In this document: piece by piece, positions 1,819 to 35,351 of the stretch | Position numbering within the stretch: position 1 is the stretch's first letter | How the letters are laid out: the number at the start of each line of letters is the position of its first letter | Source: a virus | Strand: one strand, 5' to 3' | IMG/VR virus record: IMGVR_UViG_3300020159_003728 | Coordinates: 2,396 to 66,395 of that record | Length of the DNA stretch: 64,000 bases | Program-made: the position numbers and the translations under genes | The notes under the pieces: generated by a model | Seen by the model: only the letters and a program-made list of their open reading frames with translations | What the model was told of the DNA's origin: nothing | Databases searched by the model: none

Positions 1819-4800
1819 TTGGGGGTTCAGGTGAGCCCTGATCAGCAAGAGGTAAAACCTCTCAAACTAAACGACATCCTTGGAAATAGATCAATCGTTC
1901 TATGCCCAGGTCTAGGTAGCGATCAAGACTCCAAGATCAGAACAGGCTTAGTTGATTCTGATTATGTAAGTCGGCTACTCGTAGATGACGACGATCAACA
2001 GTTTGGATATAAAGGATTTCTCGGAAGAACAATTCGAGAAAACCGTAGTCTCGCGTCAATTGGCGACCGTGTTGCGCGCTCCATGGGCGTTGTCGTTGAT
2101 GATTTAGGTAAGCTTCGCTGCCCACCAGGAACACCTAACGCCAATCAATTTACAGATTTGCAAATGACCGGCTGCATGGACGCTCCATCTGCTGGCCAAA
2201 TTGTTAATGGTGTTGCTGATGCTTCAGATTCGCTAATGAACGGCCTTGCCGGTAGGCGTAATAAGGGTATTGTTGAAAGAACTCAACGGGTTATCGACAA
2301 ATATGGGCCACTCGACACAATCGATCAACAAAAAGAAGCTCTGTCTAAAGCATTCCCGAATGCTCAGGTCTTTTTTAAAGATCGATTCCTGAACAGAATC
2401 ACTCCTACCGGACGAAGAAAAATCACTGAAGCTAGGCGTGCTTTCGCAGTTTCTCTACTAGCTGAAGCTGATGAGTTTCCAGATGTTGCAGAATCAGTTG
2501 GCCTAATAAGTGACCGACTTGGATTTGTAAACGGACAATCATCTATTGCAATGGTTTCATACGAACCCAACCATGCGATAAGTGGAGTTCATATACACAT
2601 GTCTCAGTGGTCCGTTACATCCTTGGGAGAAAGAGTTGCGCGTCGTGCCGCAGATTCTACTTCCAAAAGAGAAGGACTCCCTAGCATTTCTTCTAATGGC
2701 ATAAATAAAGATACTTCTATTAATGATCGAATGCACCACTATGCATCTCATGAGTTTGGTCATGTAGTCGACCTTAACTCTCAAATGAAATCATGGGGAT
2801 TTGATCCTAAGAAATCCAATGGCAGAATAGACTTTGTTAAGACACGCCCAGCAAATGACGCACTTATTGAGGCTGAACTAGCAGGAGCGTTGGACGAACT
2901 ACAAAAAGCAGATCCGAAATCAGCAAAACAAGCTCAAAAACAATTTTCTGACTTCTTTGAAGGGCTTATGAAAAATGAATGGTTTGGGCGCAAATTAGAT
3001 TCTGCAGAATTGGAAATGCTAGACGAGGTGCTCGGAAGCGCCTATGCGTCGGCTCACTTTCAACAAACAGATGATGTTATTGAATACATAGCCGAACTAT
3101 TCGCTCAAATTCGTATTTCAGGATATGGAAGCGAAATACCAAACTCGAGCGGGGATTTAGTCGTTAGACAGCCACGAGAGATTCTTCGTGATTTCCTTAG
3201 TCGAGACATACCTGGTGCTGATGATGCTGCTGGTGGTAGACAAATTGGCGAAATCAAATCATCAATTGGTGGTCATGAAATGATGGAAGAAAAAGGAATG
3301 CGTCGCCGTTTGGCTCGCCGGCTAGAACGATTTATACCGGTAAACATGCGCGAAGATGGTGACGGGGATGGGTTTGTCAACAACCCCCTAACTGGGCGTG
3401 ACGATGTGCCCGTTGCTCGAGGCCAGGCAGCAATAGCAAATACTCGCGCTCAAGCCATATATCGATCTAGAAAGCCAAAAGACACAAACATAGTTCGCAT
3501 GTCATCAATAGATGATGACGATCCAGACGAATTGTTTAGAAGTTTGGGACTACCTATAGGCAAGCCGATAAAAAGAACTGATCGTTGGGGTTCAATTTCT
3601 GCACCCAAGCCAGAGAATAAACCGTCATCTGCTCAAGAACAGGCAGAACAGTCGTTGGGAATTCAAGAACAAAAAGTTCGCCGCGCGACTTTAAAAAATA
3701 TCAACATGTATAAACTCACGCAACTTTCAGATCAGTTGCTTGATCTTAATGAAGATCTCCAAAAGCGCCGAACGGTCACATCAAGCAGCGATGAGGAATC
3801 AGACTCGGATGATGTTGGCGAACGCGCTTTTAAGCGAATTAACAAAATTCACTTGCGTTTACTTCAAATCCTCAAAGAAAAACGAGCCAGAGACATAGAA
3901 TCTGGCATAGAGCTTGATGTCACAGAGGACAACATTAAACGCCTATACAAAGGCCTTGAAAGTCTTCGCAACATACGCGATGATATTGATGATGACTACG
4001 ACATCCTAAAGTCACCATTGATTGATGATCTGTATGCTCAAATAAGGAAACTATATAAAGAGCAATTTGATTCACTGCCAGAAGTTGAGAAAAAATCGTT
4101 TAGCAATGATTTTGAAGTTAAGGCGATTGGAAAGAAACTTGGTCGGCGCGGCAAAAATGCGGTACGCAGGATCTTTAAAAAACCAGACTTTGACGGCGAT
4201 GGTGATGGTTTTGTTACAAACCCAGCAACCGGTCGTGATGATCTTCCATTTGTTCAGGCGCCAAGTGCCCCAGATGTCGCACCAAAAAAACGATCACTAT
4301 TTGCATCAATGGTTCGTAAAGGAAAGAACGAAACTCCCCTTGCAAGAATGGAGTGGACTGAAGCTGACCCAGACCCATCTTCGCCTTCGTCATGGGCTGG
4401 ACGGTTTGCGGTATACAAAGAAATGATGATGGGTCAAAATGTCAAGGCCCGACCATGGGCACCCATTGCTATGCGTGTTGCCGAAATTGAAAGCCTTGTC
4501 GAGGCTCGGTTTGGAAAGCTTGAAACACCTGAGGAAATAAAAAAAGCTCTCAAAAGCGCAGTACCAACAGCTCAGGTAAAGGTCAAATTAAGCAAAGAAA
4601 AACTTAATGATCCGGGAATTAGAGCAGAAATAATCGGATATCTATACATGATGTCGAGACTTCCAGAGCACTTCGGTTCTGCACGAAAAATTGAAATTCA
4701 CGAAAGAGACGCGCGTCCTTTGGTTAGTTCTAGCGCAACAGAAACTGTACTTCAGTCAAAGTGGAGAGAGCATGGTGGAAAATTAATAAATCACCTATCT

Positions 4801-6009
4801 CGTGGGACAAAGCTAGATGTTATGTTTGCGCCAAATCAAATGGTCTTTCGCGATGATGGAACTATTCTTGCGGCCCAAGCAAAAGACACTGTTGGCACTC
4901 AGATAGTAAAATCCTATCTACGCCACCTAGAAGAGACTAATGCAATAGAAGAAGGGATACTCACAGAAGAAGAAGCTTTAAGGACGGCAATCCTGCTCCA
5001 GGGTCTTTCTACTGGGGTTCATGAAGCCGGGCATGCTATTCACCATACAAGGTCGTCAATGTGGACAGGCAAAGAAAATCCACAAGAAATAGTAGAAAAA
5101 ATTAATGACATTCTTACTAATCGACCAGATGATATTAAAACAACCATATTCCGTAGTTGGTTTTCAAAAGATATTCTAAATGGGATCCAGCTATCTTTGA
5201 TGGTACAAGCGGGTTATGGCGGCGACATTAATAACCTCGCCGCAGCAGCACAGAACCAGCAGGACCCCAATTTAAAAAAGATGCTGTCACAACTATTAGA
5301 TGATTGGAAAAATAACCCTTTTACAGACGACGGTTTAATACCTGGCTACTTGTTTAGCGAGTATGAATCAGAAGAAAAAATAGATCTAATGCAACAAATA
5401 GTGACCGGTGGGTTGGACAAAACCGAGTGGGCAAAATTTATTTGGGGCGAGGATGCTCAGTCTGACATCGCTGAACGCCTATTTGATGACATGATGAAAT
5501 TTGCAAATGACGCAGGAATTGAACAAACAACCGCCGACGAAATACGCGAGGAAATGTTTTCTGATCAAGATAGTGCGCTTTCCGCAGCGTTGGGAATTTT
5601 GCTTGCCGGCCGAATGTGGGATGATCTAAGCAGTAAAGAAATTTCTACACTCAGGCGGAGCTGGAAACATATCTCGAGTTACGCAAAAGATAAAAACAGT
5701 TCTTATTCTGAGCGGTATGGATCAAACAGGCCTTCGCTCGAAGGTGTTGCCGAGGCAATAACAGCTCGTATTTTTGGGTTTTCGTTCATCAAAGACAACC
5801 CAGATGCTGAAGCTGCGCTAGATAAATTAATTGCATGGATTTATTCATCGCCAGAACCGTCAATAGCAATTGCATTTGACAAAATTATTGAATTGTTTGG
5901 CGATTTTGATGTTCCCGACGATGAAGATGGAACAAAATCTTTGTATGATGGGCTTGCTGGAGCTAGTAAAGATCTGTACCTACTACTTGGGCTAAAGGAG
6001 CCACAATGA
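1819..6009 (+). CDS. Modular (polyvalent-type) protein with two zincin-like metallopeptidase domains
   Basis: HEFGH..SAYA..EYIAE and HEAGH..SSYA..EGVAE motifs. One RCPxG tag and two DGDGDGF..NPxTGRDDxP tags. Confidence 0.75.
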   Translation: MGVQVSPDQQEVKPLKLNDILGNRSIVLCPGLGSDQDSKIRTGLVDSDYVSRLLVDDDDQQFGYKGFLGRTIRENRSLASIGDRVARSMGVVVDDLGKLRCPPGTPNANQFTDLQMTGCMDAPSAGQIVNGVADASDSLMNGLAGRRNKGIVERTQRVIDKYGPLDTIDQQKEALSKAFPNAQVFFKDRFLNRITPTGRRKITEARRAFAVSLLAEADEFPDVAESVGLISDRLGFVNGQSSIAMVSYEPNHAISGVHIHMSQWSVTSLGERVARRAADSTSKREGLPSISSNGINKDTSINDRMHHYASHEFGHVVDLNSQMKSWGFDPKKSNGRIDFVKTRPANDALIEAELAGALDELQKADPKSAKQAQKQFSDFFEGLMKNEWFGRKLDSAELEMLDEVLGSAYASAHFQQTDDVIEYIAELFAQIRISGYGSEIPNSSGDLVVRQPREILRDFLSRDIPGADDAAGGRQIGEIKSSIGGHEMMEEKGMRRRLARRLERFIPVNMREDGDGDGFVNNPLTGRDDVPVARGQAAIANTRAQAIYRSRKPKDTNIVRMSSIDDDDPDELFRSLGLPIGKPIKRTDRWGSISAPKPENKPSSAQEQAEQSLGIQEQKVRRATLKNINMYKLTQLSDQLLDLNEDLQKRRTVTSSSDEESDSDDVGERAFKRINKIHLRLLQILKEKRARDIESGIELDVTEDNIKRLYKGLESLRNIRDDIDDDYDILKSPLIDDLYAQIRKLYKEQFDSLPEVEKKSFSNDFEVKAIGKKLGRRGKNAVRRIFKKPDFDGDGDGFVTNPATGRDDLPFVQAPSAPDVAPKKRSLFASMVRKGKNETPLARMEWTEADPDPSSPSSWAGRFAVYKEMMMGQNVKARPWAPIAMRVAEIESLVEARFGKLETPEEIKKALKSAVPTAQVKVKLSKEKLNDPGIRAEIIGYLYMMSRLPEHFGSARKIEIHERDARPLVSSSATETVLQSKWREHGGKLINHLSRGTKLDVMFAPNQMVFRDDGTILAAQAKDTVGTQIVKSYLRHLEETNAIEEGILTEEEALRTAILLQGLSTGVHEAGHAIHHTRSSMWTGKENPQEIVEKINDILTNRPDDIKTTIFRSWFSKDILNGIQLSLMVQAGYGGDINNLAAAAQNQQDPNLKKMLSQLLDDWKNNPFTDDGLIPGYLFSEYESEEKIDLMQQIVTGGLDKTEWAKFIWGEDAQSDIAERLFDDMMKFANDAGIEQTTADEIREEMFSDQDSALSAALGILLAGRMWDDLSSKEISTLRRSWKHISSYAKDKNSSYSERYGSNRPSLEGVAEAITARIFGFSFIKDNPDAEAALDKLIAWIYSSPEPSIAIAFDKIIELFGDFDVPDDEDGTKSLYDGLAGASKDLYLLLGLKEPQ

Positions 6010-6945: not shown

Positions 6946-6946
6946 A

Positions 6947-8938: not shown

Positions 8939-8944
8939 CAAACT

Positions 8945-11900
8945 ATGCAAACCACGGATGCTCATATGATCGAAACAAAGGGATACATTTCCGTACCCGC
9001 AATTACGCATATCGAGATCTCACGCCTTCCAAAAGATAAGCGCGTACAGCTTATTCACTACAAGGCGCTAGCATTTAATGCTGACCGCAAAAATGCTGCA
9101 CTTTCGCGCGATACAACTTTCGTTATTGAAACTAAGGGCCTGAAGCCAGATTGGGATCCAGGTCTTGGACCTGGCGGAGGCTGGCGTTGTCCGCAAGGTT
9201 CTCGTTATGGTGGCTACATTACCGACAAATTTGGTCGCGGTTGTGGTGGCGGAATTCTTCGCCGTTTAGGAGATGCACTAGGTCAACTTAACAATAACTT
9301 GGCTTCGACTACGGGCGCAGGATTGGCCGCTACCGGCGAGCGCAGAGATATGCGACGCCTTGCTCGCGCAGCAGCACGGCAGCGTTACCGTGATGATACA
9401 AACCTTGCTCGAAGTTTGTATCCAAGCCTTGGGTCAAGAGCATTAGATCGACTTGGGTTTGGGTACAGGCGAACAACCTATGGTTTGCCGCCATTTTATG
9501 GACCACCTCAGCCAAAGCGGCGGAATCGCGGAGCAAACCCTAATAAGCCCCCGATTGTTACGCGAGTACTTGATAGAACTGGCGATCGCTATAACGACAT
9601 GCTTGATCGCATTCTTTATGGAAAAAATCGTCCAAAGAAAAAGACTCCCAGCAAGCGAACAGTTGTTACTGGCAAAGTTTCACAAAAACGAAAGAAAAAG
9701 AGCCCCACGGCAAAAAAACCTTCAATTATTACTCGGCTTCTCGACAACACTGGCGATAAATACAACACCTTGATTGACCGCGTTCTATATGGTCGCAATA
9801 AGAAAGGTCGTAGTGGTCGGCGCTCAATTCCGCAAGCTACAAAACAGCCAGTTAAAAAAGTAACAACGCCGCGTGCTAAGAAAAAGAAGGCCGTAGTTAA
9901 AAAAGCTACGCCAAAGCCAGTTCTTCCCAAGAAAAAAATTGGCACAGTTGGAAAATTTGATCCAGTATCACTTTCTCCAAAAAATCGCACTCTTCTGGCA
10001 AAACTAGCTCAAGACGATCTTGATGATCTCGAGACATTCTGGCGCAAAATGCTCAATCTTGGCCCTGCCGATCCGCTTGAACAAACAGAGATTGATGATT
10101 TTATTGAAAACAAAATTAAACAGTACAAACCTGGGGATAAATCTGCAGGGGCGTATATTGGTTTCCTTAAGGCTCAATCAAATGATTATCAGGCTCTTAA
10201 AGCATGGAAAGACGAGTATTCAAACGATGCAAACGGTGACGCTTGGATAGGGGAGCTAAATAAACTTGGGCCCACCCGCCGCAAAAAGTTTCTCGACGCT
10301 CTTAATGCCTCTGCCCCACCCAAGAAGAAGGCACCGGCTAAAAAAGTACCGGCCAAGAAAAAGCCCGCTCCAGCTAAACCTGCAGCGAAAAAGCCCGTTG
10401 CTCCAACACCGCAGGCTCCAGCTCCGCAAGCTCCTACGCCAGCTAAGCCTGCCCCAACGCCTAAGCCTGCACCAGCACCTAAGCCCGTCCCAGTGCCGCA
10501 AGTCCCTACACCTAACATCACTCCAGAAGTAGATGAAATTGAGCCAATTGACGATACTCCAGTAGATGTTGATGAAGACGGCAAGCCAGAAACATTACCC
10601 TCATGGCTAAAGCCAGTCGAAGACGATCCAGAAAAAGAACTTCCGCTTCCTTCTTTCTTGCTTCCGAAACCAGAAGAACCAGAGCCAGAAAAGCCTGAGT
10701 TCCCCGCATGGCTGAAGCCCAAGGAGCCAGAAGCAGAAATTGTTCCAGAAGCAGAAATTATTCCGGAACCTGTATCTCCTCTAGAAGCAGAACTAGAAGA
10801 AATTCCGATAGTCGAACCTGAAGTTGCTCAAGAATCTAATGCTGAGTATCTCGAATGGTTGGCCGAACAACAAAAACTTCTGTCGGAAAGCCCTAAGAAG
10901 TCTCCTGAGTTAGATTCGCTTCTTGGTGCAATTAATGTCAAAAACGACGGCTTCTATACGCTTGGAGAATTTGAAGATACTCCTGACGGCATTAATGATG
11001 CGCTCAAGTTTATACAAGACACATCAAAGATAGCCGATGCCCTTAATTACAAGGGCTGGATTGGCCTCTACAAAAATCAAGATACCGGCAAGTTTATTGC
11101 TCGACCAGTTGAGTACATTAATCCGGATGATGTTGACGGTTCGCTTATTCTTGCCAAGAAAGACGAACTTTACGGAACAGTTGATTTAGATAGCTTTTTG
11201 ATCAAGGATTTAATTGGTACTTCACTTCCGGAACCAAAAATCAAAAAAGATAAACCGGAAAAAATATTTGTTCCAGCATCAGTAACAGAGATAGCAATCA
11301 AAACTGCCGGTATTAGCGGTAAAGATTCACGAGATTTGATCAAAGGTCTAATAGCGAAAGCAGAAGAATCAGGCGAAGACCAGGTTTGGGTTGCTTTAAT
11401 CGATGGAAAAAATGCAACATCTTTTCATGGTCCAGTAAGCGAAATCGAAAAAATTGTCAAGAAGTCTTTAAAGGCTAATTTCAAGCAGCAGATTTATTTT
11501 CTAGGCCATGTTTCAGGAAAAGACGGATTTTCTCAATTTGCCCGCGATAGTTATCATTGGTATCAAGAAATAGGCAAACACAATGGTGTACCTCTTAAGT
11601 ACAGGCCAAATCATACATTTGAAATGGATGCTGGTGAACTTGACGATGATGGACCAGACGCGTGGATTACTGCCTTCTTAAATCCAAATTATGACGGCAT
11701 AAAAGAAATGTTTAAACAGAATCCTTCCGCTACTCCTTACCACCTAAGTGGTAACGACAAAGTGGAAATGACTAACGCAGCACTTCTAAATTATCTAGGT
11801 ACTCTACCTGACGGTCATGAAGCATACAAAATCCGTCGTCGCCCGGCTAGCGCATCTAAAAGCCGAATCGCCTTTGCTGAACTACCATGGTTCGGTCACC

Positions 11901-14900
11901 TCGGCAAACAAACTGGCAAGTCAGTTGGTCAAAGGTACAAAGTACTTAAAGATGGATTCTATGACGATCCAATGTTTGGGCCTGATCAAACAAAACTTAC
12001 GGGAATGTTGCATAGTGCACTAGCTGACGCACGAGCACTTGCATATTCACAAAGTAAAGATATGTTCATCATCGATGTGGCACCATCTGATGGTGATCCG
12101 ATAATGAACATTGTTGACCTTGATCGCTTGCAGTTTCTTATTAGTAATGGAAACAAATTTCGCATAATTGCACAAGTCGAACAAACTGGCGGTACATGGA
12201 ACAAGACATATAACATTAGTATTAACTCTGACTACAAAAAAGTTGCGCCAGATACGCCGCTTAAGTTCAGTTCATGGCTTGGCGCACGAAAGGTCGTATC
12301 CCAGAAGCCTCCTGACGACGATGATGAAACTGATCCCGTAGGTGAGGTAAACAAATTTATCAACGGAGTTCTCGGAACTACACTTCCAGAACCAAAACCA
12401 GTAGCAGCATTTAACTTTGTTATCGAAGCAATTGATTCTGGTGATGATGTAGATTCAACAATTCCAGAAGTTGAACCGATATTTGCCACTAAGACTGATG
12501 AAGAACTTGCTGATGTTTTAAACGGTGTTGACACTATTGACTGGTGGAAGGCTAATTCACCGTTCGAAAAATCTGATCTTGATGAATTTGTAATTCAGGC
12601 AAAGCAATCTGCAAAAAATGCCGCTTCTACCGATGGTATCCCAACTGTAAAGAAAGTTGATTCAGCACTCGGAATAGTTAACGAGCAGATAGCAAAACTT
12701 GAAAAAGGTATTCCACTAAATAAAGGAAATGACGCAAAATGGGATACTCTTCGTTCGCTGTTCATTGCTAGAATTCAGAAAAAGCACCTCGAGTATTTGC
12801 GTAAAATTGCCAAAACAAAAGAAGATCTTGATACCACGGCCGGTCTCGCTGCTGCTGACATCGGCTATAAATCACTGCCGGCTGATGTTGCAGTAACCGT
12901 AGATGTTGATCAGGTTCTCAATGATGAGACGATCACCCTTGGCGAAGCACTTGACTTAATTGGCTCAGCAAAACCAATAAAAGAAGTTCTTGAAGAAAAA
13001 CTAAAAACAGCAACCGGAGTTGTTCAGTTTGGGTCTTTGCCCGAACAGATGGAAACATTGACCGGAATACCAATGTCGAATATTGACAATCTAACTACAT
13101 GGAGTGGAGGAAAAACTTCAGCCACACTCGATTCAATATTGGCAGCTTTGCAAAATAATAAGCCAGTGACAACATCGGCTAACAATGAAATAAAAGAATT
13201 AGAATGGGACCTAAACAATCTCGAGTTTGTTGTTAAGGAATTGACCGTTGAGGCGACAAAGGAACTTGAACTCAGAATCAAGGCACAGCTTCAATTGATG
13301 AATGTAAATCTTTTGAACATATTGGCAGAAAAGGGAATTTCGACACCAGCCAAATTTCTTAATAAAGACATGACTGGTGTAAATGGCGATTATTTAAAGT
13401 CACTATCAAACCTTTTCGAATTATCATATGACACATTGGGGACAAATAGTTACATAAGTTGGGCCGCTGCAAATGATGTTCTTGTGATGGCAAAAGAACT
13501 TAAACGGCTGAAAAAAGCGGATCCAAACAAGACAGCTAAGGGAATCTTGTACGCCATTGCCAGTAAACCAGGAGCTAGTGTCCCTGAAATTATTGACCCA
13601 GCTCCACCCGTAGCTAAAAAAATCAAAATGTCACTCAATGATCAAATATCATTTAGCGACATTGGAGCACTAGACCTTGTGGACACCCTTGGCGTCCTTA
13701 TGGATCAGGCCATGGTGAATAAACAACGAATCATGATCTGGGTAACAAATGATTCAGATGAGAAAATTACTATTGGAACATATAAGAAAATTATTGTTGG
13801 AACATACGAAGAGATGAGTGCCAATTGGTCCAATGTAGGGAGCGTTATTGCTGGCGTTATGCCTAATGGCGCAATTTATGTTTCTGCTTCAAGTACGGCA
13901 AATCAATCTAAATGGCTCTCTAAGGTTGGCAAGTACGGCACTGGTGGGTGGGATGTCCCATTGGGTGCGGCATACAAATTCGAAGGCGAAAGTGAATTTG
14001 AAGTACTAGATAAACTCTATGACGCTAAAGACAATCTAATCATTAGCAAGGATACAAATGATGGCGGATGGTCTATTGGGGCCGCTGCTCCTCCAAAATC
14101 AATGTTCACGCCTTCTAAAGATGCTCCGCCGACAACAAACATGGCCGGCTTTGAGTCACCTGACGCAGCAAATTACATATCGCTGCCTGGACGAATTAAA
14201 AAATCACATTCATTAGTTCTGAATAATCTCCCCGAGGCAGCAGAGGCAAATCTCCAAGGTACCCCAATCAAAAATTCGGATTGGGCCAATATTTATGACA
14301 CTGTTATCTCTCCTGGGGTTGATATTCCGCTCCTGGACAGCGAAGATGCTGATTGGTTCAATGCTGCCTTTTTCACAACGGAGAATTTGCGAGACCTGCT
14401 TAATTCTGTTGCAAAATCGGGTGTTCCCGATGGGGCAGAAGTTCACTTTTATGTTGGACCAGAAGGAAAAATATTAGTTCGTGTTCTCCCATACCAACCA
14501 AGTTGGGCTAGTGAAGATGTTGTAACCAAGAAAAAGGGATACAAACTTATTGCTGTTGCCTCACTAGACACGCCATTTCTCGCAAGTGGCAAAAACTCAG
14601 GCGGAGAGCCAGGCATCAATCAATTCTGGATTGCGTCAAATATTGGAGACACTTCCGATTTAGATTACATACCCAATACTCTAAAGACCAACTCAGCAGC
14701 AGAATTTAAAAAATTAGGATTTAAGAGTTGGTCAGATATTAATGGAGGAAATTTTAAAAAAATTGCCCCACTCCTTGATGCTGCCTTAAAAGAAATACTT
14801 CCGTCAGCAGCGGATATACCTTTTGACGATAATACTTTTGAATCAATGACACCAGATTCTGCTCCTCAATGGATTTCCCCAAGTGCTCCTCTGGACATTG

Positions 14901-20382: not shown

Positions 20383-20738
20383 TGGAAGAAATGGCTTTAG
20401 TAATAAAAGGATATGACGCTAAAAAGAATGCCCTAACACCACGAATGATTGTCGTTTTTACTAACTCTCGAATTGTTGCATTTGGTGACCCGGCAACATT
20501 TGCTGGCCACGAAGCTGACGAAATTACAAAACGCTATGCGATGTTAGAGGCTAGCGAAATACCGGCAATTCTTGACGCGTACAAAGATCGTTACATCGGT
20601 GAAACTTATGCTTATGGGGGTAAGGCCGATATGGTCCCCTATTCGGGCAAAGATAAGAAGAAGATTGATACAATTAAAGACGGCTTCGCAAATACGGAAT
20701 TTAGTCCGACACTTGAGCGCACCCAGGGATCAAAATGA
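20382..20738 (+). CDS. Hypothetical protein
   Basis: TGATG overlap upstream and ATGA overlap downstream. Confidence 0.7.
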   Translation: MEEMALVIKGYDAKKNALTPRMIVVFTNSRIVAFGDPATFAGHEADEITKRYAMLEASEIPAILDAYKDRYIGETYAYGGKADMVPYSGKDKKKIDTIKDGFANTEFSPTLERTQGSK

Positions 20739-23700: not shown

Positions 23701-24154
23701 CCGTAGTGCTTTAACAGCAGCAGAGCGCGCGGCAGGAATGCTTGATAGAAACCCTGATGATGCTGGAATAAATCAGCTGTATGTTCCTGCGGGTCTAGAG
23801 CAAATGTATCCAGCAGACACGATCGGCGATTCTTTTAGAGAAATGGCGACAGATATTGCCGAATGGTACGAACAAATCTTGAATCAATATGAAAACCTCT
23901 TAAAATCTACAGATTCATTGACATCGCTGAGTACTCCAGATCCAACTACTGCTAGTGGAAGAATGACATATTTGCTATCAGCTATCTCATTTATGCCATC
24001 AAAACTTAAATTCTTAGGTCTTGAGGACGCAATCAAAGAAGCAGTCGATGATGATGATCCGTTTTCTGGAGGCAATTTATTGCCAATGATGTTTCAGAAT
24101 ATGCTCGCATCCATGTATTGGGAAGAAGTTAGAAAGCGAGGACTTCTCGACTAG
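20735..24154 (+). CDS. Modular head-region protein: two GCxG..MPC repeats, a HiPIP-like Cys domain, a VYRRG..SHRP..QWAMGRV module, a DGD tag and an acidic C-terminal cargo
   Basis: GCSGAH..WMPC and GCIGIR..FMPC. CGNC..GYC..C..CKAW. DGDSDGFIWNPLTGRDDLP at 22217-22273. Confidence 0.7.
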   Translation: MKRTAMTTRAEALKIARYMGCSGAHETENGWMPCSSHSILMDISNRAEKSLARQVVSKRKKRAKKPPANQWEDLTESPVTSIDTLSDGSLVSGVVGTKAAKQKCPEATQSVVVNLKNRQKAIRDAKYGPMNPNEPSTEYWKDIADLWDVSIPEAKKQRCGNCAAFVKTPEMLSCINTGIGNDKDSWSVIAAGDLGYCEFFDFKCASKRTCKAWVVGGPITGNETKQLSERTVRRSDIDVFGSPESARARARQIGCIGIRRYSSDNGKPAFMPCTNESDYRRRMGTSEQGRIDIAKRQMREMRLAIGKMRSKSAASTPAPKKDQIFGSDKNQSGSASSRSSASGINLSESTVAGLKRSLQAHNRRMSELNKPSWTTANLDALKAVYRRGAGAYSISHRPNVTRSQWAMGRVRAFLWMLEHGKPKKLAYITDNDLLPEKHPFRQNKKTVNLILQDLDFDSLEYKGLGGWFRGVKPSRIGARRKLRNAAPKRPKSSYDGDSDGFIWNPLTGRDDLPFNAPKIPGAGGTTPGAKPQKMRTVLARIAGKKRQKPKRENLFVKPDIRKTSNTVRSDSFDFDDEDFALDFGLGATKFPSRIPIVDTIDFQGFVQNPYWIRDEFAQKLGDYWIAGRDVRGIRPVPSIIPFSLRQWNGLHSAERHAILEFYKRQEAKKRLLQGIFDAEEAEEIAAKQLTNLPKNPQQAQEYLNQRTHRKLAAIFPHLRDGLDADGKPISTPKPGEPLIASIDDTKEFLKNTPSPRKFSTSDNFDYVLDLLQPIDKFAIQAHFFQRDRNLENPNRNHGYAPFLSDREFWDFVSINIGSILGRAEEENPGLSMDRLTRDQIDKYANRELESNAGQLPVANDVFALSRAIYSLLFPSSDKETEDNIRDMAEYNGDREKPIEEKIAEIRVAIASGFNKDYAELYMATALSPDEKDTEAKKDLNPLYEQFLDAEPPMPADMPNATNDPDFRPYVHPMQAEHTGIFEDEEDVAARSALTAAERAAGMLDRNPDDAGINQLYVPAGLEQMYPADTIGDSFREMATDIAEWYEQILNQYENLLKSTDSLTSLSTPDPTTASGRMTYLLSAISFMPSKLKFLGLEDAIKEAVDDDDPFSGGNLLPMMFQNMLASMYWEEVRKRGLLD

Positions 24155-24294
24155 TAAAGATAAATACTTTAAGTAGTTCCACTATAGAAACCCATCCCAT
24201 GTTACATTTAGAATTGACTTTGGGCTGGGTGCTTACCTAAGTGGCCAAATCAAATATCCGCATCCACAACAAAACCAAACTCTTAGGAGATCAA

Positions 24295-25638
24295 ATGTCA
24301 ACCGACGAATCCCGTCTTTCCGAACTTCAGTCAGCACTCCGTACAAAGATGGCTGACAACAAGTCCATTGCCGACTCATTCAAAATTGAAGAAGGCACCG
24401 TAGTTGTTAGCACTGAACAAAAGAGTGCTTTCGACAAGAACATGCGCGACATCAAGGAAATCAAGAGCCTTATCGAAGGCATTGAATCCATGCGCGATGT
24501 TGAGCGCTGGGGAAGTGAACCAACTTCTGATTCACTGGCCGTCAAGGCTCTCGCTGCCGGCGGCACGGTCAATGGTTACTCAGCCAAGTCAATCGGTGAA
24601 CTGTTCCTTGATTCTGAAGAATTCAAGTCACTTGCCGGTGGCCGTAATGGTGCCAACATGCCAAGCCCCTTCGTCCTTCAAAAGAGCGATGTCACCTCAG
24701 GCATGCTTTTCAAGGATGTCTACTCGGCTCTGCCCAGTGGCACTCCCGGTTCATTCGGTCGCATCGATCGTGACGCGATGGTTACCCAGCCCACACGGAC
24801 CCGTCGTGTTCGCGACCTCTTCCCGAGCCGCACCACCACTGCAGCCGTGATTGAGTACTTCCGTATGCTCGGTTTCACAACTCCCGGCACCACCGCCACG
24901 AATGCCGCTTCTTCGGTTGCTGAACGCGCCGCTAACAACGGTAGTTTCGCACAGAAGCCGCAGTCGTCATTCCAGTTCGTTGGTCAACAGGCTCCGGTGC
25001 GCACCCTCGCTCACTGGGAAGCTGCCCACCGCAATGTTTTGGCCGACGAGCCGCAACTCCGTAGCATCATCGACAACGAATTGATGTACGGTCTGCGCCT
25101 CCAGGAAGATGCTCAGATCCTCAACGGTAACGGTCAAGGCGAGAACTTGACTGGAATCTTGAACACTTCAGGCATCCAGAACTACGCATGGTCAGACGGC
25201 CAGAATGGAGCCGGCGACTTCACCGCCGATACCAAGGCTGACGCTCTTCGTCGCGCTGCGACCCTCTCGTTCCTTGCTTACTACGAGCCAACCGGCATCG
25301 TTATGCACCCGAACGACTGGGAAGACATCGAATTGACCAAGGACCTCAACGGTCAGTACTTGGTCGCTGTGAGCGTCGCTATGGGTGGCGAACCCCGCAT
25401 CTGGCGTATCCCGATCGTCGAAACTCCCGCCATTGCAGAAGGCACCGCTCTCGTTGGCGCATTCGGTACCGGCGCTCAGTTGTACGACCGCGAGCAGGCA
25501 AGCATTCGCATCAGCGAACAGCACGCAGACTTCTTCGTGCGCAACGCCATTGTCATCTTGGCTGAACAGCGTCTCGCTCTCGCTGTTAAGCGTCCAGAGG
25601 CATTCGTCGAAGTCACATTCGACAACGCTCCCACCTGA
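24295..25638 (+). CDS. Major capsid protein, HK97 fold, with N-terminal delta (scaffold) domain
   Basis: AGGAG then ATG 24295. Coiled-coil N-terminus. Motifs EDAQILNGNG, IVMHPNDW and ILAEQRLALAVKRPEAF. Strong C-ending codon bias and a terminator immediately downstream. Confidence 0.95.
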   Translation: MSTDESRLSELQSALRTKMADNKSIADSFKIEEGTVVVSTEQKSAFDKNMRDIKEIKSLIEGIESMRDVERWGSEPTSDSLAVKALAAGGTVNGYSAKSIGELFLDSEEFKSLAGGRNGANMPSPFVLQKSDVTSGMLFKDVYSALPSGTPGSFGRIDRDAMVTQPTRTRRVRDLFPSRTTTAAVIEYFRMLGFTTPGTTATNAASSVAERAANNGSFAQKPQSSFQFVGQQAPVRTLAHWEAAHRNVLADEPQLRSIIDNELMYGLRLQEDAQILNGNGQGENLTGILNTSGIQNYAWSDGQNGAGDFTADTKADALRRAATLSFLAYYEPTGIVMHPNDWEDIELTKDLNGQYLVAVSVAMGGEPRIWRIPIVETPAIAEGTALVGAFGTGAQLYDREQASIRISEQHADFFVRNAIVILAEQRLALAVKRPEAFVEVTFDNAPT

Positions 25639-25701: not shown

Positions 25702-25761
25702 TACGGCTAAAAATGCAACTATTATTACTACAAAACAAGCCTTACATTGCAAGGAGAAACA

Positions 25762-27914: not shown

Positions 27915-28534
27915 ATTTTTATTCTCAGGCAGGCCAAGACAAATGGGTTCTTGATGTTACAAAAAACAAAAAATCCAAAAAGTTTTTTGTTGATATTGGA
28001 GCATACGATGGAATTAATACAAGCAACACAATGGCACTCGAAGAAAGTGGCTGGACTGGCCTATGCGTAGAAGCAAGTCCTGAGGTGTTTATATCTCTGG
28101 CTCAAAATCGGCCAGCAGCTACCAATCTTCATATGGCCGCAGCATCATTTAATGGTCAGCTAAATTTTTCAGGATTCTCATCTACATCTGATAAGTCCGC
28201 ACCGCTTATTCCTTGCGCAACCCTTGATGCAATTCTGGAAATGACTGATTGTCCTCAAGTAATCGACTATTTATCAATGGATATTGAAGGCATGGAGCCA
28301 GATGTTCTGGAAGTATTTGATTTTTCAAAATATCAAATCAATACTGCAACAATTGAACATAATCTATACATGAATGGCTCTGAGAATAAAGACAAGATAT
28401 TTAACATCATGTCAAAAAATGGATTTATTCGTGTCGTAGAAGACGCACCGTGCCTTGACACAAATCCACTGTATTACATGAAGCCATATGAGGATTGGTA
28501 TGTGCGAGAAGAGTTTCTACTTTCCGAAAGTTGA
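27911..28534 (+). CDS. FkbM-family methyltransferase
   Basis: YSQAGQD, FVDIGAYDG..SNT, GWTGLCVE and IDYLSMDIEG. Confidence 0.9.
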   Translation: MNFYSQAGQDKWVLDVTKNKKSKKFFVDIGAYDGINTSNTMALEESGWTGLCVEASPEVFISLAQNRPAATNLHMAAASFNGQLNFSGFSSTSDKSAPLIPCATLDAILEMTDCPQVIDYLSMDIEGMEPDVLEVFDFSKYQINTATIEHNLYMNGSENKDKIFNIMSKNGFIRVVEDAPCLDTNPLYYMKPYEDWYVREEFLLSES

Positions 28535-29921: not shown

Positions 29922-29929
29922 ATAATGTT

Positions 29930-29963
29930 TAGGTAGTTTTTGACTACTGAGCCAAACTACCTA
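29930..29963. terminator. Inverted repeat, possible terminator
   Basis: TAGGTAGTTT-N14-AAACTACCTA just after the stop codon. Confidence 0.45.
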
Positions 29964-30010
29964 ACTAGATCTTCATATTCCTAGAGTAAAATTGAAGACT
30001 AAGGAGCATT

Positions 30011-31159
30011 ATGAACCGTCGTGTTTTAGCTGGAAAAGCCCTAGGTGAGCGTATCGGTGACATGGGTAAACCCATGCGCGATGGCGACGGCGACGGTAAA
30101 TGCCGTGAGGTTGGCGGTAAGTTCATTCCATGTCCCCCAGGGATTGATGCCGATACAATTCTAGGCAATCTCACTGACCCGATTGACATATTTGACGGCG
30201 TAGATCTTGATCTATTTGATGACGAGTATGAACTCGAGCGCAGCGCGGTAGTTGAAGATTGGCAACAGTGGGAAGAGTGTCGTTCAATTCGACAAGAAGC
30301 TTACAAAATTGTTAGCGGGTCAGAATCTGTCGCTGATCCATACCTTCGTCGATCTGAACCAAATTTCTTTGGTGATCCGACAATTGCAAAAAGCAAACCC
30401 AGTCACAGCCAAGAAGTTTCTAGGTCCGAGGCTAGGTACCTCTTAAACCGGCTTGTAGAGAATGTACAGCAAGGTGAAGTACGAAATTCCCCACTTTATA
30501 GAGCAATGGAATTACCAAGTGACCCAGAAGCTGTGCTATCAAGCCTTGAGGAAGGCAAAATTGTGGACATTCCATTAATGGCAACTGCAACAGAAGCTCG
30601 CCAAGGAACAAATAATTTTTTAGCTAAGTACGGGCAGGATATTTTATTAAAAATAGACGGCCCTAGTGTTGGAATAGGCGGTGATGCTCTGGCCACCCTG
30701 GCATCTGAACAAGATGAAGATGAGCTGCTTAATTACTTAGAGATGTTGGCAAATGACTGGATTAATTTTCCCTCAGATGAGGGTTCTTTGACAGACTCGG
30801 CAGATCAACTACTTGAACTAATACAACAATACGAAGAAGCACGCCGTCTTCAAAATTACAAAAATCTTGCTAAAACCAAGAAAGAACTTCTTGAAATGAT
30901 GGAAGAATACGACTTGCATCCCGTCGGGATGCATTTCGCTGGCGATGAATTGGACGAAAGTCATCCTGACTTTTACGAGCGGATCGAAGATCCATCTACA
31001 AACCCATTACGAGAGGTTATTACTGGTGGTCGATTCAAGGTGTCTAAAGTTGAGGACGACCCCTCTGGGACTTACAAGCGTATTGTGACAATGTCGCATA
31101 TTGGGGTATTTGATCCCCGTCAGCCAGGTTCACTAACACCAATCAAGGGAGCTCGTTAA
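30011..31159 (+). CDS. Putative ADP-ribosyltransferase (R-S-E clade) with an N-terminal DGDGDG tag
   Basis: PLYRAM, PLMATAT (at the STS position) and REVITGGRFKV in the expected order. AAGGAG RBS. Confidence 0.7.
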   Translation: MNRRVLAGKALGERIGDMGKPMRDGDGDGKCREVGGKFIPCPPGIDADTILGNLTDPIDIFDGVDLDLFDDEYELERSAVVEDWQQWEECRSIRQEAYKIVSGSESVADPYLRRSEPNFFGDPTIAKSKPSHSQEVSRSEARYLLNRLVENVQQGEVRNSPLYRAMELPSDPEAVLSSLEEGKIVDIPLMATATEARQGTNNFLAKYGQDILLKIDGPSVGIGGDALATLASEQDEDELLNYLEMLANDWINFPSDEGSLTDSADQLLELIQQYEEARRLQNYKNLAKTKKELLEMMEEYDLHPVGMHFAGDELDESHPDFYERIEDPSTNPLREVITGGRFKVSKVEDDPSGTYKRIVTMSHIGVFDPRQPGSLTPIKGAR

Positions 31160-31338: not shown

Positions 31339-31409
31339 CCTATTGTCAAGTCAATTTATCCTTATTCTTTATGGGGTAAAATTGATAGAGTTATGGAAGG
31401 TTCCTTTTA

Positions 31410-34400
31410 ATGGACAAGCATTCACTCACATTTAAACTGATTAATCAGATTGTCGACGCAGGCATCAACATCGTCCAATTTGATGTGAATCAAAAAGCCG
31501 CAGACGACCTCCCAAATAAGCCGTCTGTATCCAAAATACGAAGAAAAATAAAATTCCGCCGCCTTGATGGTGATGGCGATCAAATGACCAGTATCTTGTC
31601 TCCAACAGGGGAGGACAATGTGCCGGTGGCAAATGTCGTTGCCCGGTATGCCTCTCTCGGGGTTGAACTGGTCGACCGAGATATTCTCGAGGATCGACTT
31701 AACGGATTAAGCCTTGAGCAGGCGGCCGAAAAATACAAAATGGATCAAGCCGAAATTAGCAAACGCGAAGTGCGTGTTGCGGCGGCAATGCGTCAGCTTG
31801 GTGAAGAGATACCGTCCAGCACTTCACCCGCTCAAAAAATTGGACCAACGATTGGTAGTTCTCGTCGTTCCCGAGTTGGATCATTATCTAAACCAGCATC
31901 ACCCTCAATCACGGCAACCGAAGCACCAAAGAAGCGCGGACGACCTCCTTTGTCAGAAGTTGTCCAGGCCGAGCGTCGTGCCGCTCACCAGGCTGCCAAA
32001 GAAAAAAAGAAGCGCGAACGCAAGCTCTTGTCAGAGGCCGCCCAAGCCGAGCGTCGTGCTGCTCAGGGTCCAGTAAGAGCCAAGCGTGGCCGCAAGAAGC
32101 TTACCGAGGCGGAACGAAATGGCATAATTTCGGACTTGCAGTCGGGCATGCCATTGGCAGAAATCGTCAGTAAATATTCAATATCAGAAACCACCCTTTC
32201 TAAAATCAGCAAAGAGTCTGGCTTGTCTGGAAAAATCAAAAGAGGCCCGGGTAGGCCGATTCCACCACAAACACGAGACGCAATTTTCAAAGATCACGAC
32301 GCCAATCCAAATATGACGGTCATGGAGCTTGCTGCAAAATACTCTGTAGATCCAAAGTCTGTTCTTAGGGCTTTTAAAAACAGTTCCGTTGGCGCAGATG
32401 GTAAAAGAACAAGTACGGATAGTGCCAAGGCAAACGCAATAGCCGACCGGCTCATCAATACAAATGACAATTTGCAAGATATTGCAAAAGATTTTGGCGT
32501 TAGTAGACAGTATGTCGACATGCTCGGTAAAAAACTTGGTTTACGAACAACAAAACGCACACGAAAGCCAATGCCATCGCAGCCGGAGCCAGCCAATTTG
32601 CCGGAAATGCGCGACTTTATTCGTAGCAATCCATCGACCACAATAAGAAAAATACAAAACGAGTTCCCGGGTATCGGGGAAGTGAGAATTAGGAAAGAAC
32701 GAAACGCGATTCTTGGCGTTGATAAAGATACGCGCATGACTTCAACCATAAATCAAGTGACTAAAATTTATGACGAGTTAGCATACGAGGGTATGACAGA
32801 ACAGGATCGCACTGCTCTAGTAGGTGTAATTGCCGAAAAACTCGGAATACCAGTCACTCGTGCAAGTCTGCTTGTTTCACGAATCTCTACTGGCGTCAAA
32901 TCAAAAAGAGGCAATAAGATTTCTAATGCGGTTCGCGCATATGAAACGGCTGTGCGAAAAAATCCATCTGCGAAGAAGGGTCAATTACTTATTGACATTG
33001 CAAAAAAATATGACACCACACCGCAATCTATTTTGGCATCAATTCAAGCTCGCAATTCAGGTGAGGGCAAGGGTCCGGGGGCTGCAATAATTGCAGCTTT
33101 CACCAAGCGGGCCGAGGCAGAGGACTTTTTCATGAGAAGGCGCGCCGATGTATACGAGGAAATCGCCAAAGAACTAGGGCGTTCACCATCGAGTGTTCAG
33201 ACTATCATTTCTCGATATTCTCGAGTGAAGTATCCAGATAAAAAAGCAAGAGCTGATTTTGCAAAAGCTAATATCGTTAAACGAGATTATGAAATGCTCA
33301 AGTCACTTCTTTCAGGTACGGATATTAAAAAGATTGCACAGTCTAATAAATTAACCGAAAAGGAAGTTCTAAAACGAACAGAACTTCTTAAAGGTCTATT
33401 GCGAAAGCATAATAAACCACTGATGCAGTGGTCTGCGCGCGATACTGATGCCCCAACCCCACTGCCGCTCCCACCATCTCGTAGACGCTTCTGGTCAGAA
33501 ATGGGCCGACTGAGAGACGACGAGAACCCAGATGAGGTCATTGCTAAGGGTATTGCTGCGTCTCCGGGAACTGCTGTTGGGAAGGTGTACTTCACTACTG
33601 AAGAGGCGATCACTGCTTCGGAGCGCGGCGAAAAAGTCATCTTAGTGCAAAACGAAACAAGACCTGAAGATGTTCAGGGAATAATGGCGGCCGAAGGTGT
33701 TTTGACGGCCCGCGGTGGTCTTGTGAGTCACGCAGCGATATCTGCTCGCGGCGAAGGAAAGCCAGCAGTTGTAGGAGTAGAAGCCGTCAAGATTGATGGA
33801 AAAAAGTTTACCGTTGGCGACATTGTTGTCAAAGAAGGCGATGTCATTTCGCTTGATGGAACAACTGGCGAAATCTTCCTTGGAAAATTACCATCTCGAT
33901 CTACTTCACCGGGTGAGAGCACTGTTCCTAAAAAATCTAAACCGACGACAACAAGAAAAAAAGTAGGGGGATACCCATTTAAGGGCATGACTCAAAAGGA
34001 TCTTGCGGCTGAGTATGCAATTCAGAAAGAATCTGCACAAAAAATATTAGATGACGAAAGAAGTAAGCGTCTTAAACAGAATCAACCGTTGCAAAACATT
34101 CTTTCATCCCTGCTTGATATTGAGGATTATGAATTGACCGACGACAAAGACAAGGACTCTCTTTCTAGGGATATTCAATTAGTGAAAACATTCGTTGATG
34201 AAAAATTAAAATTTGACAGTACTGACAATCCATTAGTCGTTGGTTACGCCACCCAGTTGGTTGCAATATCAAAATTACTAAAACTTCGGAGCAAGCAGCG
34301 TGCACTAACTGCAGATGAAACGAAGCTAATGAATGATCTTTCTGTTATCTTTGAGGATGATAGTGATTTTCGAGGTGGCAATGATCGCCCCTTGATGATG

Positions 34401-35351
34401 AATCGCATATCGGCAAATGATTTTATTAGCAGCTCTTTTGATTCTGCATGGATTTATCCAGACGGAACAATTTATCCAGTTCGGCTTACACACGAAAATG
34501 AATTTGATTATGACGATGCGTGGGAAGATGGTTTGGTTCGTTTAGCAATGAATCGCGGTCGCCTTTGGAAAAATGTGAACGGTGAATTCGAAATTATTAC
34601 TGGAGACATAAACTTTGAAGTGCGTCGCGACTTAACCGACGAACAGAAGGGAACTCTCAACACGCTCTTTGGCAACATTCCACACGCATCCGTATTTATG
34701 GCCACTGATGCTGATCCGGCAATTACGCCCGGGGGTGGCGGCCGATTCTCTGATGGAAAAACTGCACTAAAAGCGTTGAAGAGTTTTTTCTCTGCTAAAA
34801 AATCCAAGTCGGTTGCACCAAGTGTAAAAATGAATCAGACTCGTATAAAATCCGTATATGGCGCAGTAAGCCCTGAAGGGTCGGGCAACTGTTATGAGGC
34901 TGCGATGACCACTGCTGAAACAATCGGCAAAAGAATAGGTGTTCCGGACAGTTCAATACGGATTGCACATGGTGTGCCACTTGGTACCGGTGGTGATGCT
35001 CAAGGTATTAGATACAACCATGCCTGGGTTGAGGTCGCTCGCAATGGATGGGATGAGTACGATCGTGTAAGTACTGCACTAGACAAACTTGTTGACGAGT
35101 CGAAAAATGTAAAAGATCCCGCACGAGCTGCAGAGCTGCGAAAGCAATACAATGAACTTGTTCAGAAATTGATTCAGATTGAAGTCGAAGATATTCAGGT
35201 ATATGACTATTCCAACGGCAAAAGAATTGTTTTAGATCGCATGCTTTATTATGGAATTGGAAATATTGAGCGTCAGCACGCTTTGTATTACTCAATCGGT
35301 GATGCTCGAAAAGAAATTGTAAATAATAGTCACTTTGGACCGTGGGGCTGA
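31410..35351 (+). CDS. Modular protein: DGD tag, AT-hook-like and multiple HTH repeats, PPDK phospho-His swivel domain, C-terminal transglutaminase/papain-like domain
   Basis: KKRGRPP. HTH-like units such as LQDIAKDFGVSRQYV and IAKELGRSPSSV. ASPG..LTARGGLVSHAA..ISLDGTTGEI at about 33534-33888. GNCYE..HAWVE..YDYS. Confidence 0.8.
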   Translation: MDKHSLTFKLINQIVDAGINIVQFDVNQKAADDLPNKPSVSKIRRKIKFRRLDGDGDQMTSILSPTGEDNVPVANVVARYASLGVELVDRDILEDRLNGLSLEQAAEKYKMDQAEISKREVRVAAAMRQLGEEIPSSTSPAQKIGPTIGSSRRSRVGSLSKPASPSITATEAPKKRGRPPLSEVVQAERRAAHQAAKEKKKRERKLLSEAAQAERRAAQGPVRAKRGRKKLTEAERNGIISDLQSGMPLAEIVSKYSISETTLSKISKESGLSGKIKRGPGRPIPPQTRDAIFKDHDANPNMTVMELAAKYSVDPKSVLRAFKNSSVGADGKRTSTDSAKANAIADRLINTNDNLQDIAKDFGVSRQYVDMLGKKLGLRTTKRTRKPMPSQPEPANLPEMRDFIRSNPSTTIRKIQNEFPGIGEVRIRKERNAILGVDKDTRMTSTINQVTKIYDELAYEGMTEQDRTALVGVIAEKLGIPVTRASLLVSRISTGVKSKRGNKISNAVRAYETAVRKNPSAKKGQLLIDIAKKYDTTPQSILASIQARNSGEGKGPGAAIIAAFTKRAEAEDFFMRRRADVYEEIAKELGRSPSSVQTIISRYSRVKYPDKKARADFAKANIVKRDYEMLKSLLSGTDIKKIAQSNKLTEKEVLKRTELLKGLLRKHNKPLMQWSARDTDAPTPLPLPPSRRRFWSEMGRLRDDENPDEVIAKGIAASPGTAVGKVYFTTEEAITASERGEKVILVQNETRPEDVQGIMAAEGVLTARGGLVSHAAISARGEGKPAVVGVEAVKIDGKKFTVGDIVVKEGDVISLDGTTGEIFLGKLPSRSTSPGESTVPKKSKPTTTRKKVGGYPFKGMTQKDLAAEYAIQKESAQKILDDERSKRLKQNQPLQNILSSLLDIEDYELTDDKDKDSLSRDIQLVKTFVDEKLKFDSTDNPLVVGYATQLVAISKLLKLRSKQRALTADETKLMNDLSVIFEDDSDFRGGNDRPLMMNRISANDFISSSFDSAWIYPDGTIYPVRLTHENEFDYDDAWEDGLVRLAMNRGRLWKNVNGEFEIITGDINFEVRRDLTDEQKGTLNTLFGNIPHASVFMATDADPAITPGGGGRFSDGKTALKALKSFFSAKKSKSVAPSVKMNQTRIKSVYGAVSPEGSGNCYEAAMTTAETIGKRIGVPDSSIRIAHGVPLGTGGDAQGIRYNHAWVEVARNGWDEYDRVSTALDKLVDESKNVKDPARAAELRKQYNELVQKLIQIEVEDIQVYDYSNGKRIVLDRMLYYGIGNIERQHALYYSIGDARKEIVNNSHFGPWG

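Follow-up and report, generated by a model that had tools for sequence, protein, structure and literature searches.

We describe a short peptide tag with a DxDxDG core that recurs on otherwise unrelated proteins encoded around the major capsid gene of an uncultured virus, and we suggest, from sequence comparison, that it forms the core of a module by which polyvalent head proteins are both processed and loaded, a reading to which we give about an even chance. The window, that is, the whole stretch of DNA that was analyzed, covers 64,000 nucleotides and corresponds to bases 2396 to 66395 of a single 66,395-bp viral contig (IMG/VR record IMGVR_UViG_3300020159_003728), for which CheckV estimates a completeness of 45%. 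A six-frame regular-expression search of the window with DGD[GSA]D[GQ] matched exactly five times, each time on the plus strand and in the frame of an open reading frame (ORF), with two copies in the ORF at 1819-6009 and one each in those at 20735-24154, 30011-31159, and 31410-35351. Together with translation, the search reproduced the positions and peptides of five copies listed in an earlier reading of the bare sequence (the original prediction), which had taken the tag for an address that loads interchangeable enzymes into the head for injection; the Lys-Gly/Ala junctions noted there (EEK-GM, EVK-AI, EYK-GL, AGK-AL, and NQK-AA) are all present as well. A sixth copy, DLEEK↓ALFGRGGKSRRKVRKILKRPKY-DGDADG-FITNPLTGRDEIPW (the arrow marks a predicted cut), lies at the N terminus of a 715-residue ORF of the same contig, which starts 1.9 kb upstream of the window and ends at window position 243. 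An iterated hidden Markov model (HMM) of the tag, run over the whole 66.4-kb contig, found no copy beyond these six, the 3662-residue ORF included, and all six lie within a block around the major capsid gene. The features concerned are the following, in window coordinates.

1..243, plus strand: 3' end of the 715-residue ORF (ORF start at genome base 521, tag core at genome base 635); locus L003 has a homologue with the same N-terminal tag.
1819..6009, plus strand: P0001, 1396 residues, of polyvalent type, with an N-terminal region containing HEFGH, tag 1, a helical region, tag 2, and a HEAGH region; homologues are P0006-P0010 and P0013.
3292..3411, plus strand: tag module 1, K↓GMRRRLARRLERFIPVNMRE-DGDGDG-FVNNPLTGRDDVP.
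4120..4248, plus strand: tag module 2, K↓AIGKKLGRRGKNAVRRIFKKPDF-DGDGDG-FVTNPATGRDDLP.
8945..19933, plus strand: giant ORF of 3662 residues from the same head block, without tag or Pfam family.
20735..24154, plus strand: P0002, 1139 residues, directly upstream of the capsid gene, with DUF3721 (residues 8-38), a Cys-rich domain, DUF5824 (residues 374-426), the tag, and an acidic C-terminal region.
22118..22273, plus strand: tag module 3, K↓GLGGWFRGVKPSRIGARRKLRNAAPKRPKSSY-DGDSDG-FIWNPLTGRDDLP.
24241..25638, plus strand: major capsid protein of HK97 fold with an N-terminal scaffold-like region (Pfam Phage_capsid, 1e-45; PDB matches to HK97-type capsid proteins).
24586-24600, plus strand: predicted capsid maturation site YSAK↓SIGELF, from site conservation.
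30011..31159, plus strand: P0003, 382 residues, possibly an ADP-ribosyltransferase-like cargo (a lead only).
30035-30097, plus strand: partial, N-terminal tag of P0003, K↓ALGERIGDMGKPMR-DGDGDG-KCRE.
31410..35351, plus strand: P0004, 1313 residues, with an N-terminal tag, helix-turn-helix (HTH) arrays, a PEP-utilizers mobile domain (residues 741-820), and, at the C terminus, a region like a papain fold (a lead only).
31494..31625, plus strand: tag module 5, K↓AADDLPNKPSVSKIRRKIKFRRL-DGDGDQ-MTSILSPTGEDNVP.

The DNA pattern that codes for DGDGD, GAYGGNGAYGGNGAY, has four matches in the window against a mean of 0.01, and none of 100 dinucleotide-preserving shuffles reached four. The three best copies of the tag differ at many third codon positions and yet encode the same peptide, which argues that the peptide has been kept by selection and does not reflect a recent duplication of DNA.

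When 36 diverse copies were aligned (alignment A3, the basis of our definition of the module), the tag appeared as the core of a module of approximately 45 residues that reads [acidic]-x-K↓(G/A/S)-(L/I)-G-x-(R/K)-(I/L), followed by a basic spacer, the DxDxDG loop, and a conserved tail. D35, D37, and D39 are invariant in these 36 copies, and G40 is nearly so. The tail occurs in two main forms, variant I (F-x-x-N-P-x-T-G-R-D-D-x-P) in the lineage of the window and variant II (x-V-Q-[ED]-G-T-x-F-E-R-P, often after F-D-P-N-A) in most other lineages, and the copy in 30011-31159 represents a third, Cys-containing variant (DGDGDGKCRE...). The tail of the latter, DGDGDGKCRE...IPCPPG (30080-30145, plus strand), holds two Cys, is conserved in P0049, P0050, and P0054, and is nearer to the Excalibur signature than either main tail variant. 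Among 384 tags of the collected proteins, from which seven cellular cross-matches had been removed, a Lys junction lies at most 45 residues upstream of the tag in 260; the spacer has a median length of 23 residues (interquartile range, 20 to 28) and a mean net charge of +4.1, and in 92% of cases the charge is positive. Downstream of the tag, the next 40 residues are rich in Pro (8.8% versus 5.4%; Wilcoxon p = 3e-17). In an AlphaFold2 model based on A3, the spacer is a helix of low confidence, and the loop and a small hairpin form a core with a predicted local distance difference test (pLDDT) score of 76 to 82; a Foldseek search of the PDB with a 60-residue model of the tag gave no match at E <= 0.001. 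At the profile level, the tag profile A1 matches EF-hand 3 of calmodulin, including the incoming helix (E = 0.004), and wider tag profiles match Excalibur repeats of the form DGDGDGVVCE, while P0001 to P0004 themselves gave no Pfam match to EF-hand or Excalibur at E <= 0.01. An Asp-Pro self-cleavage module, such as that of FrpC, was considered and rejected, the D-P of 'FDPNA' being replaced in some copies (FDANA, FDGNA, FNPDA) and missing in variant I.

The position of the Lys residue relative to the module suggests what it may be for. Where the tag is internal, [E/D]-x-K directly precedes the module, and where it is N-terminal, the protein begins with the sequence that would otherwise follow the junction (M-A-I-G-N-R-I-S-R-R..., M-P-I-N-N-R-I...). 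The junction is present in 154 of 259 tags, 58 N-terminal tags are without it, and the tag core falls within the first 60 residues in 78 of 258. In 60 of 81 capsid ORFs, the boundary between scaffold and mature protein matches [KR][STAGN][LIVMF][GAS] plus three restricted positions; among these 60, whose residues are in part limited by the pattern itself, 58 have K at P1, 49 have S and 10 have T at P1', 59 have L or I at P2', and 59 have G at P3'. The predicted maturation sites of the window (see above) and of Brevibacterium phage Cantare (MEAK↓SLGEAF) conform to this, and the junction K↓[GAS][LI]G thus resembles a capsid site, K↓[ST][LI]G, that is itself a prediction. The motif K[GAS][LI][GA] occurs 13 times in the 12 ORFs of the head block (10,170 residues) and not once in 17 other ORFs (5,738 residues), compared with 4.2 +/- 2.0 occurrences, and a maximum of 12 in 1000, in composition shuffles of the head proteins. 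Given this likeness to the capsid site and the enrichment in head ORFs, we read the junction as a putative site of the Peptidase_S78 prohead protease. The predicted cut lies N-terminal of the tag, so that the tag would stay on the cargo.

Small cassettes split by K↓ junctions are also seen outside the module. The N-terminal half of P0002 (20735-22100, plus strand) consists of DUF3721, a Cys-rich domain (CPxATQ...CGNC...C...C, common to P0048), and DUF5824, which recur as such cassettes in many relatives, as does DUF6321 in protease polyproteins.

The module stands N-terminal to, or between, variable cargo blocks (zincin-like regions, HTH arrays, a PEP-swivel domain, Zeta-toxin kinases, ADP-ribosyltransferases, NUDIX, and RNase T), and the proteins that bear it are very long, of the polyvalent kind, and encoded around the portal, protease, and capsid genes; the prohead-protease polyprotein carries it as well. 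From this arrangement we infer cleavage, packaging, Ca2+ binding, a partner, and injection as follows. The S78 prohead protease would cut the Lys junction, as at the capsid K↓S(L/I)G site, and each cargo block, freed within the prohead, would then start with the module, the Pro-rich stretch being the tether between the two. The basic helix and the EF-hand/Excalibur-like Ca2+ loop may then bind a common partner in the head interior, for which the capsid scaffold domain, the protease, the portal, or another tag are candidates. Such binding would recruit cargo to the prohead and hold it there, and the cargo would exit with the DNA at infection. A complex prediction for the capsid protein monomer (A5) with calcium and the tag (A3), run without controls, scored 0.02 against a mark of 0.32 and is evidence neither way.

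Conceivably, the module could serve processing only, as a docking and cleavage element by which the S78 protease cuts long polyproteins into domains, with no part in loading and with cargo entering otherwise, for instance, within the protease or the portal polyprotein. The Lys junction does belong to the module at a fairly fixed distance from the loop (the median of 23 residues mentioned above), it is like the capsid maturation site, and the module is found between the domains of polyproteins, downstream of S78 in 43 proteins. We nevertheless consider this explanation unlikely. The 58 tags at the protein's own N terminus need no cut, small single-domain proteins carry the tag as well, and cutting seems to be tag independent, as the capsid protein and other EEK↓ sites in protease polyproteins lack a tag.

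The combined role in processing and loading that we prefer draws further on the distribution of the tag. A relative of the capsid gene was found on 314 IMG/VR contigs, from which 80 loci were kept (72 to 97% identical), many of them on contigs of 105 to 160 kb. An iterated HMM search of the six-frame ORFs of 84 sources (L001-L003, L005-L084, and the window) detected 67 tag domains in 35 sources, with 62 on the strand of the capsid gene and 4 of the remaining 5 in loci that were not oriented by a capsid gene. In searches that each scored 8000 candidates, variant I was matched by 51 proteins at E <= 0.01, one of which, P0055, is an ordinary EF-hand protein, and variant II, at E <= 0.001, by 795. 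With A3 as the query, HMMER was run exhaustively over 1.84 billion cluster representatives and returned 703 proteins at E <= 0.001, including 117 at E <= 1e-10. The arrangement of a constant tag before variable, unrelated cargo, as originally claimed for the window, thus recurs across hundreds of proteins. The tie to head morphogenesis is borne out by the presence of the tag inside S78 polyproteins, namely, in 14 of the 51 variant-I proteins (Peptidase_S78 plus DUF6321, confirmed by hmmscan) and in 43 of 289 collected proteins, where S78 comes first, the tag follows at about residue 390 to 610, and up to approximately 2,900 further residues lie behind it. A Pfam search of 38 top representatives found S78 in 6, Zeta_toxin and DUF3721 in 4 each, ART-PolyVal, Phage_portal, and AAA_33 in 3 each, and Excalibur in 2 (cellular), in addition to single cases of NUDIX, PI3_PI4_kinase, HipA_2, and a giant adhesin, among others.

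As to the cargo, the domains that hmmscan located behind tags in seven proteins are Zeta_toxin, ADPrib_exo_Tox, RNase_T, DUF3626, NUDIX, PG_binding_1, and DUF7178, and tagged relatives may combine Zeta_toxin with ADPrib_exo_Tox or RNase_T with DUF3626. P0004 likewise joins several unrelated domains (HTH arrays and PEP-utilizers) in one polypeptide, as polyvalent proteins do, and its C-terminal domain is also present in P0019, there directly behind a tag. Of 174 tagged proteins among the first 175 collected, 97 carry a single tag, 74 carry two, and 2 carry three, and an Excalibur protein has eight; the small single-domain proteins with a tag are P0019, P0114, and L078:3457-4128. The labels that the original prediction had given to the cargo of the window fared unevenly: Pfam recovers the HTH and the PEP-utilizers swivel domain, the HEAGH motif behind the zincin label is visible and conserved in P0013 but has no Pfam match, and the ADP-ribosyltransferase and transglutaminase labels correspond only to weak ESM-Atlas leads (0.86 and 0.85). 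An AlphaFold2 model of P0003, made for the ADP-ribosyltransferase label, had a mean pLDDT of 35.5 and was unusable. P0001 had no match in Pfam or PHROG, and the same databases gave nothing useful for the 507-, 712-, and 3662-residue ORFs or the small ORFs.

With respect to gene context, the contig begins within the prohead-protease polyprotein. Searched by phmmer with P0020 and the Cantare protease, it showed no protease domain, because it starts downstream of the S78 domain. Locus L003, 92.5% identical in DNA over an aligned 5.2 kb, has a whole 573-residue Peptidase_S78 ORF followed by the tagged 715-residue gene, and in L001 a portal+MuF fusion precedes the protease. The composite order is therefore portal, protease polyprotein, tagged 715-residue ORF, 507-residue ORF, P0001 (two tags), small ORFs, 712-residue ORF, 3662-residue ORF, small ORFs, P0002 (tag), capsid, methyltransferases, P0003 (partial tag), P0004 (tag), and then replication-type genes on the opposite strand. 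S78 is present in five of five long records. G003, a complete genome of 137.8 kb with terminal repeats, encodes portal, tagged S78 polyprotein, giant ORFs, a weak second tag, and capsid protein in one block, and no tag was found outside that block in its 137.8 kb. In G002 and G004, the protease ORF itself is tagged, and the other tags are codirectional with the capsid gene, within approximately 10 to 35 kb. The head confinement that the original prediction had proposed to check by an HMM search holds for the six copies of the contig, all near the capsid gene, and for the tag at large it is found mostly, not strictly.

Several observations weigh against a combined processing and loading role. 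To begin with the exceptions just alluded to, the protease-capsid block of G001 has no tag, and the only tagged gene of this genome, C1:8812-12855 on the plus strand (L093), is 47 kb away from the capsid gene and on the opposite strand; it encodes a 1348-residue protein with two variant-II tags, a homologue of P0089 (Zeta_toxin plus ADPrib_exo_Tox). G005 has one tag 76 kb away. The only strong tag of G003 heads just the C-terminal part of the protease polyprotein, in which no enzyme is recognisable. The iterated HMM found no tag in the 3662-, 712-, and 507-residue ORFs of the window's own head block, nor was a tag found in Cantare, which has the nearest cultured head module, and a tblastn search of 50,697 deposited phage records with a 52-residue tag and P0161 found none, although BLAST's low-complexity filter could mask the motif. 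Cleavage of the capsid protein is predicted although it bears no tag, which would make the tag dispensable for cleavage, and we estimate that the regular expression for the junction is matched by chance in roughly a fifth of 45-residue windows. Moreover, the DxDxDG core is, by sequence, a generic EF-hand/Excalibur-like loop. Finally, the uniformity of tail variants within genomes, to which we now turn, could stem from intragenomic copying instead of a shared partner.

Loci with at least two tags are uniform in variant in 17 of 19 cases and mixed in 2, tallied without tree correction and leaving out two near-identical relatives of the window that qualified. The family of P0002-like proteins, encoded beside the capsid gene, has variant I or variant II depending on the genome. 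Such uniformity fits a shared partner or recognition between tags, and equally intragenomic copying or shared ancestry.

A different role, that of an anchor to DNA or for ejection, might be imagined for a basic helix next to a cation loop, which could bind packaged DNA, the portal channel, or, after ejection, the membrane, so that cargo leaves with or ahead of the genome and loading is left to something else. The spacer's net charge of +4 beside an acidic divalent-cation loop, the Pro-rich tether, and the retention of the tag on mature cargo, the predicted cut being upstream, would all suit such a function. No nucleic-acid-binding family matches the module, however, and its presence in the protease polyprotein, which is active before DNA entry, fits assembly better; we regard an anchor as quite improbable.

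Equally doubtful is a more specific form of loading, in which the tags are single EF-hand-like half-sites that pair in a Ca2+-dependent manner with each other or with a fixed prohead receptor. They would then form a self-recognising loading code: a protein with the phage's own variant would be coassembled with the tagged protease, portal, or scaffold polyprotein, cut at K↓, and injected, and the two tails would be orthogonal codes that keep the cargo of coinfecting phages apart. The stricter notion that cargo tags must pair with a protease tag is weakened by G001, in which tags are found on one cargo protein only, and by the untagged protease of the window's type.

Least probable of all, in our judgment, is that the tag is a structural Ca2+ loop or recombination joint with no specific partner, an Excalibur/EF-hand-like motif that stabilises the borders between domains and has spread through copying within genomes, where conserved linkers make the shuffling of domains easier: it would account for the uniform variants within genomes and for the cross-matches to Excalibur repeat proteins (P0100, P0176, P0186, P0239, and P0288) and EF-hand proteins (P0055 and calmodulin), but non-ligand residues (K-x-L-G-x-R-I, FDPNA, TxFERP, NPxTGRDDxP) are conserved across unrelated proteins despite synonymous divergence, and, apart from the cellular cross-matches, the identifiable families are head linked or effector-like (S78, portal, ART-PolyVal, and Zeta toxin; 38 scanned, most matches unannotated).

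When the combined module is set beside known systems, polyvalent proteins are the closest in layout. These very long, multidomain proteins of phages and conjugative elements, described by Iyer et al. 2017 (PMC5512222), unite zincin-like peptidases, ADP-ribosyltransferases, and other effectors; their genes accompany those for portal/MuF, and the proteins are believed to enter the particle and to be delivered along with the DNA. Similarly, relatives in our set carry ART-PolyVal, portal-MuF fusions occur, and the tagged genes of the window span the region from the protease to just past the capsid gene, with G001 and G005 as exceptions to such an arrangement. Unlike the proteins described there, domains are here separated by a repeated cassette of cut site plus loop, and the protease is of the S78 type. 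The terms calcium, EF-hand, Excalibur, DxDxDG, and linker have no occurrence in the main text of PMC5512222, supplements apart, and this recurring interdomain module is thus not described in that text. The tag is likewise unmentioned in the passages found of the COBRA actinophage paper, and a literature search on DGDGDG/DxDxDG, Excalibur, and phage capsid found no description of it. The claim of an undescribed system therefore stands for the tag, as far as the literature searched goes, and not for the polyvalent layout, which is already known.

T4 provides the classical case of a capsid targeting sequence, a peptide of about 10 residues that otherwise unrelated internal proteins of the head have in common and through which foreign cargo can be loaded; it is exclusively N-terminal and is removed by the protease gp21, which cuts on its C-terminal side after Glu. 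The tag shares with it the occurrence of a short peptide on unrelated proteins and the link to a cut, here a predicted one, by a prohead protease. In contrast, the module described here has approximately 45 residues, is also internal, has Lys at P1, and would depend on S78 instead of gp21. As its predicted cut lies on the N-terminal side, the tag would remain on the cargo, and in this respect the analogy with the T4 peptide drawn originally fails.

In HK97, the capsid protein is cut at K103↓S104-L-G, and targeting is by the C-terminal tail of the protease. The 103-residue N-terminal scaffold domain of this capsid protein is removed by the protease, as passages of PMC10275583 relate. In the phages studied here, the capsid protein likewise has the HK97 fold and begins with a scaffold-like domain, a Peptidase_S78 is encoded, and a K↓S(L/I)G site is predicted; HK97 itself is not known to package cargo enzymes or to have a DxDxDG module, whereas giant genes occupy 20 to 35 kb between the protease and capsid genes here. 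The ejection proteins of giant phages such as SPN3US and phiKZ, which are processed by removal of a propeptide, and the Dar proteins of phage P1 offer a parallel in that many internal head proteins are processed by the prohead protease and ejected into the host, with other protease families and cut motifs. We know of no shared Ca-loop tag in these SPN3US, phiKZ, and P1 Dar proteins. In the MuF polymorphic toxins of temperate phages, an N-terminal MuF domain is fused to a C-terminal toxin; in contrast, P0001 to P0004 have no MuF domain (no Phage_Mu_F match in Pfam), and in this group of phages MuF is fused to the portal. With Excalibur (PF05901) and EF-hands, the tag has in common the DxDxDG loop and hydrophobic and acidic residues at positions 8 and 10, respectively (DGDGDGIVQE in variant II versus DGDGDGVVCE in Excalibur), and, as in EF-hands, a helix precedes the loop. 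It differs in that it lacks a Cys pair, a second EF-hand as a partner, and a Glu at position 12, and its flanks are specific to this phage group.

How phages choose the proteins that they package and inject is understood for very few models, such as T4 and P1. The tag is an easily recognised sequence marker that would allow candidate injected proteins of abundant uncultured phages to be listed straight from metagenomes, among them Zeta-toxin-type kinases, ADP-ribosyltransferases, NUDIX hydrolases, nucleases, and DNA-binding arrays. It would also add a concrete processing logic, with an S78 protease and Lys at P1, to the concept of the polyvalent protein. If the tag were sufficient for loading, it could provide a compact handle to pack foreign proteins into HK97-type capsids.

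The closest cultured relatives of the capsid protein are those of Gordonia phage GMA6 and Cantare (47% identity), and the window contains a WhiB-family gene (49890-50222, minus strand; Pfam Whib, E = 4.4e-14); together, these suggest an actinobacterial host. The phages with the tag make up a large group of uncultured, aquatic, whiB-encoding viruses with an HK97-type head, probably actinophages whose genomes measure approximately 115 to 160 kb. The 3662-residue ORF (8945-19933, plus strand) between the protease and capsid genes has counterparts at the same place in relatives, where the giant ORFs encode 2428 to 3464 residues. Right after the capsid gene, at 25747-28534 on the plus strand, lie genes for a C-methyltransferase (Methyltransf_14/23), a 315-residue ORF of unknown function, and an FkbM-type methyltransferase, possibly a cluster for sugar or virion modification. 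At 36218-38146, the minus strand encodes a class II (B12-dependent) ribonucleotide reductase, and the G+C content rises from approximately 0.45 to 0.50-0.54 from about 44 kb on, which marks a different module.

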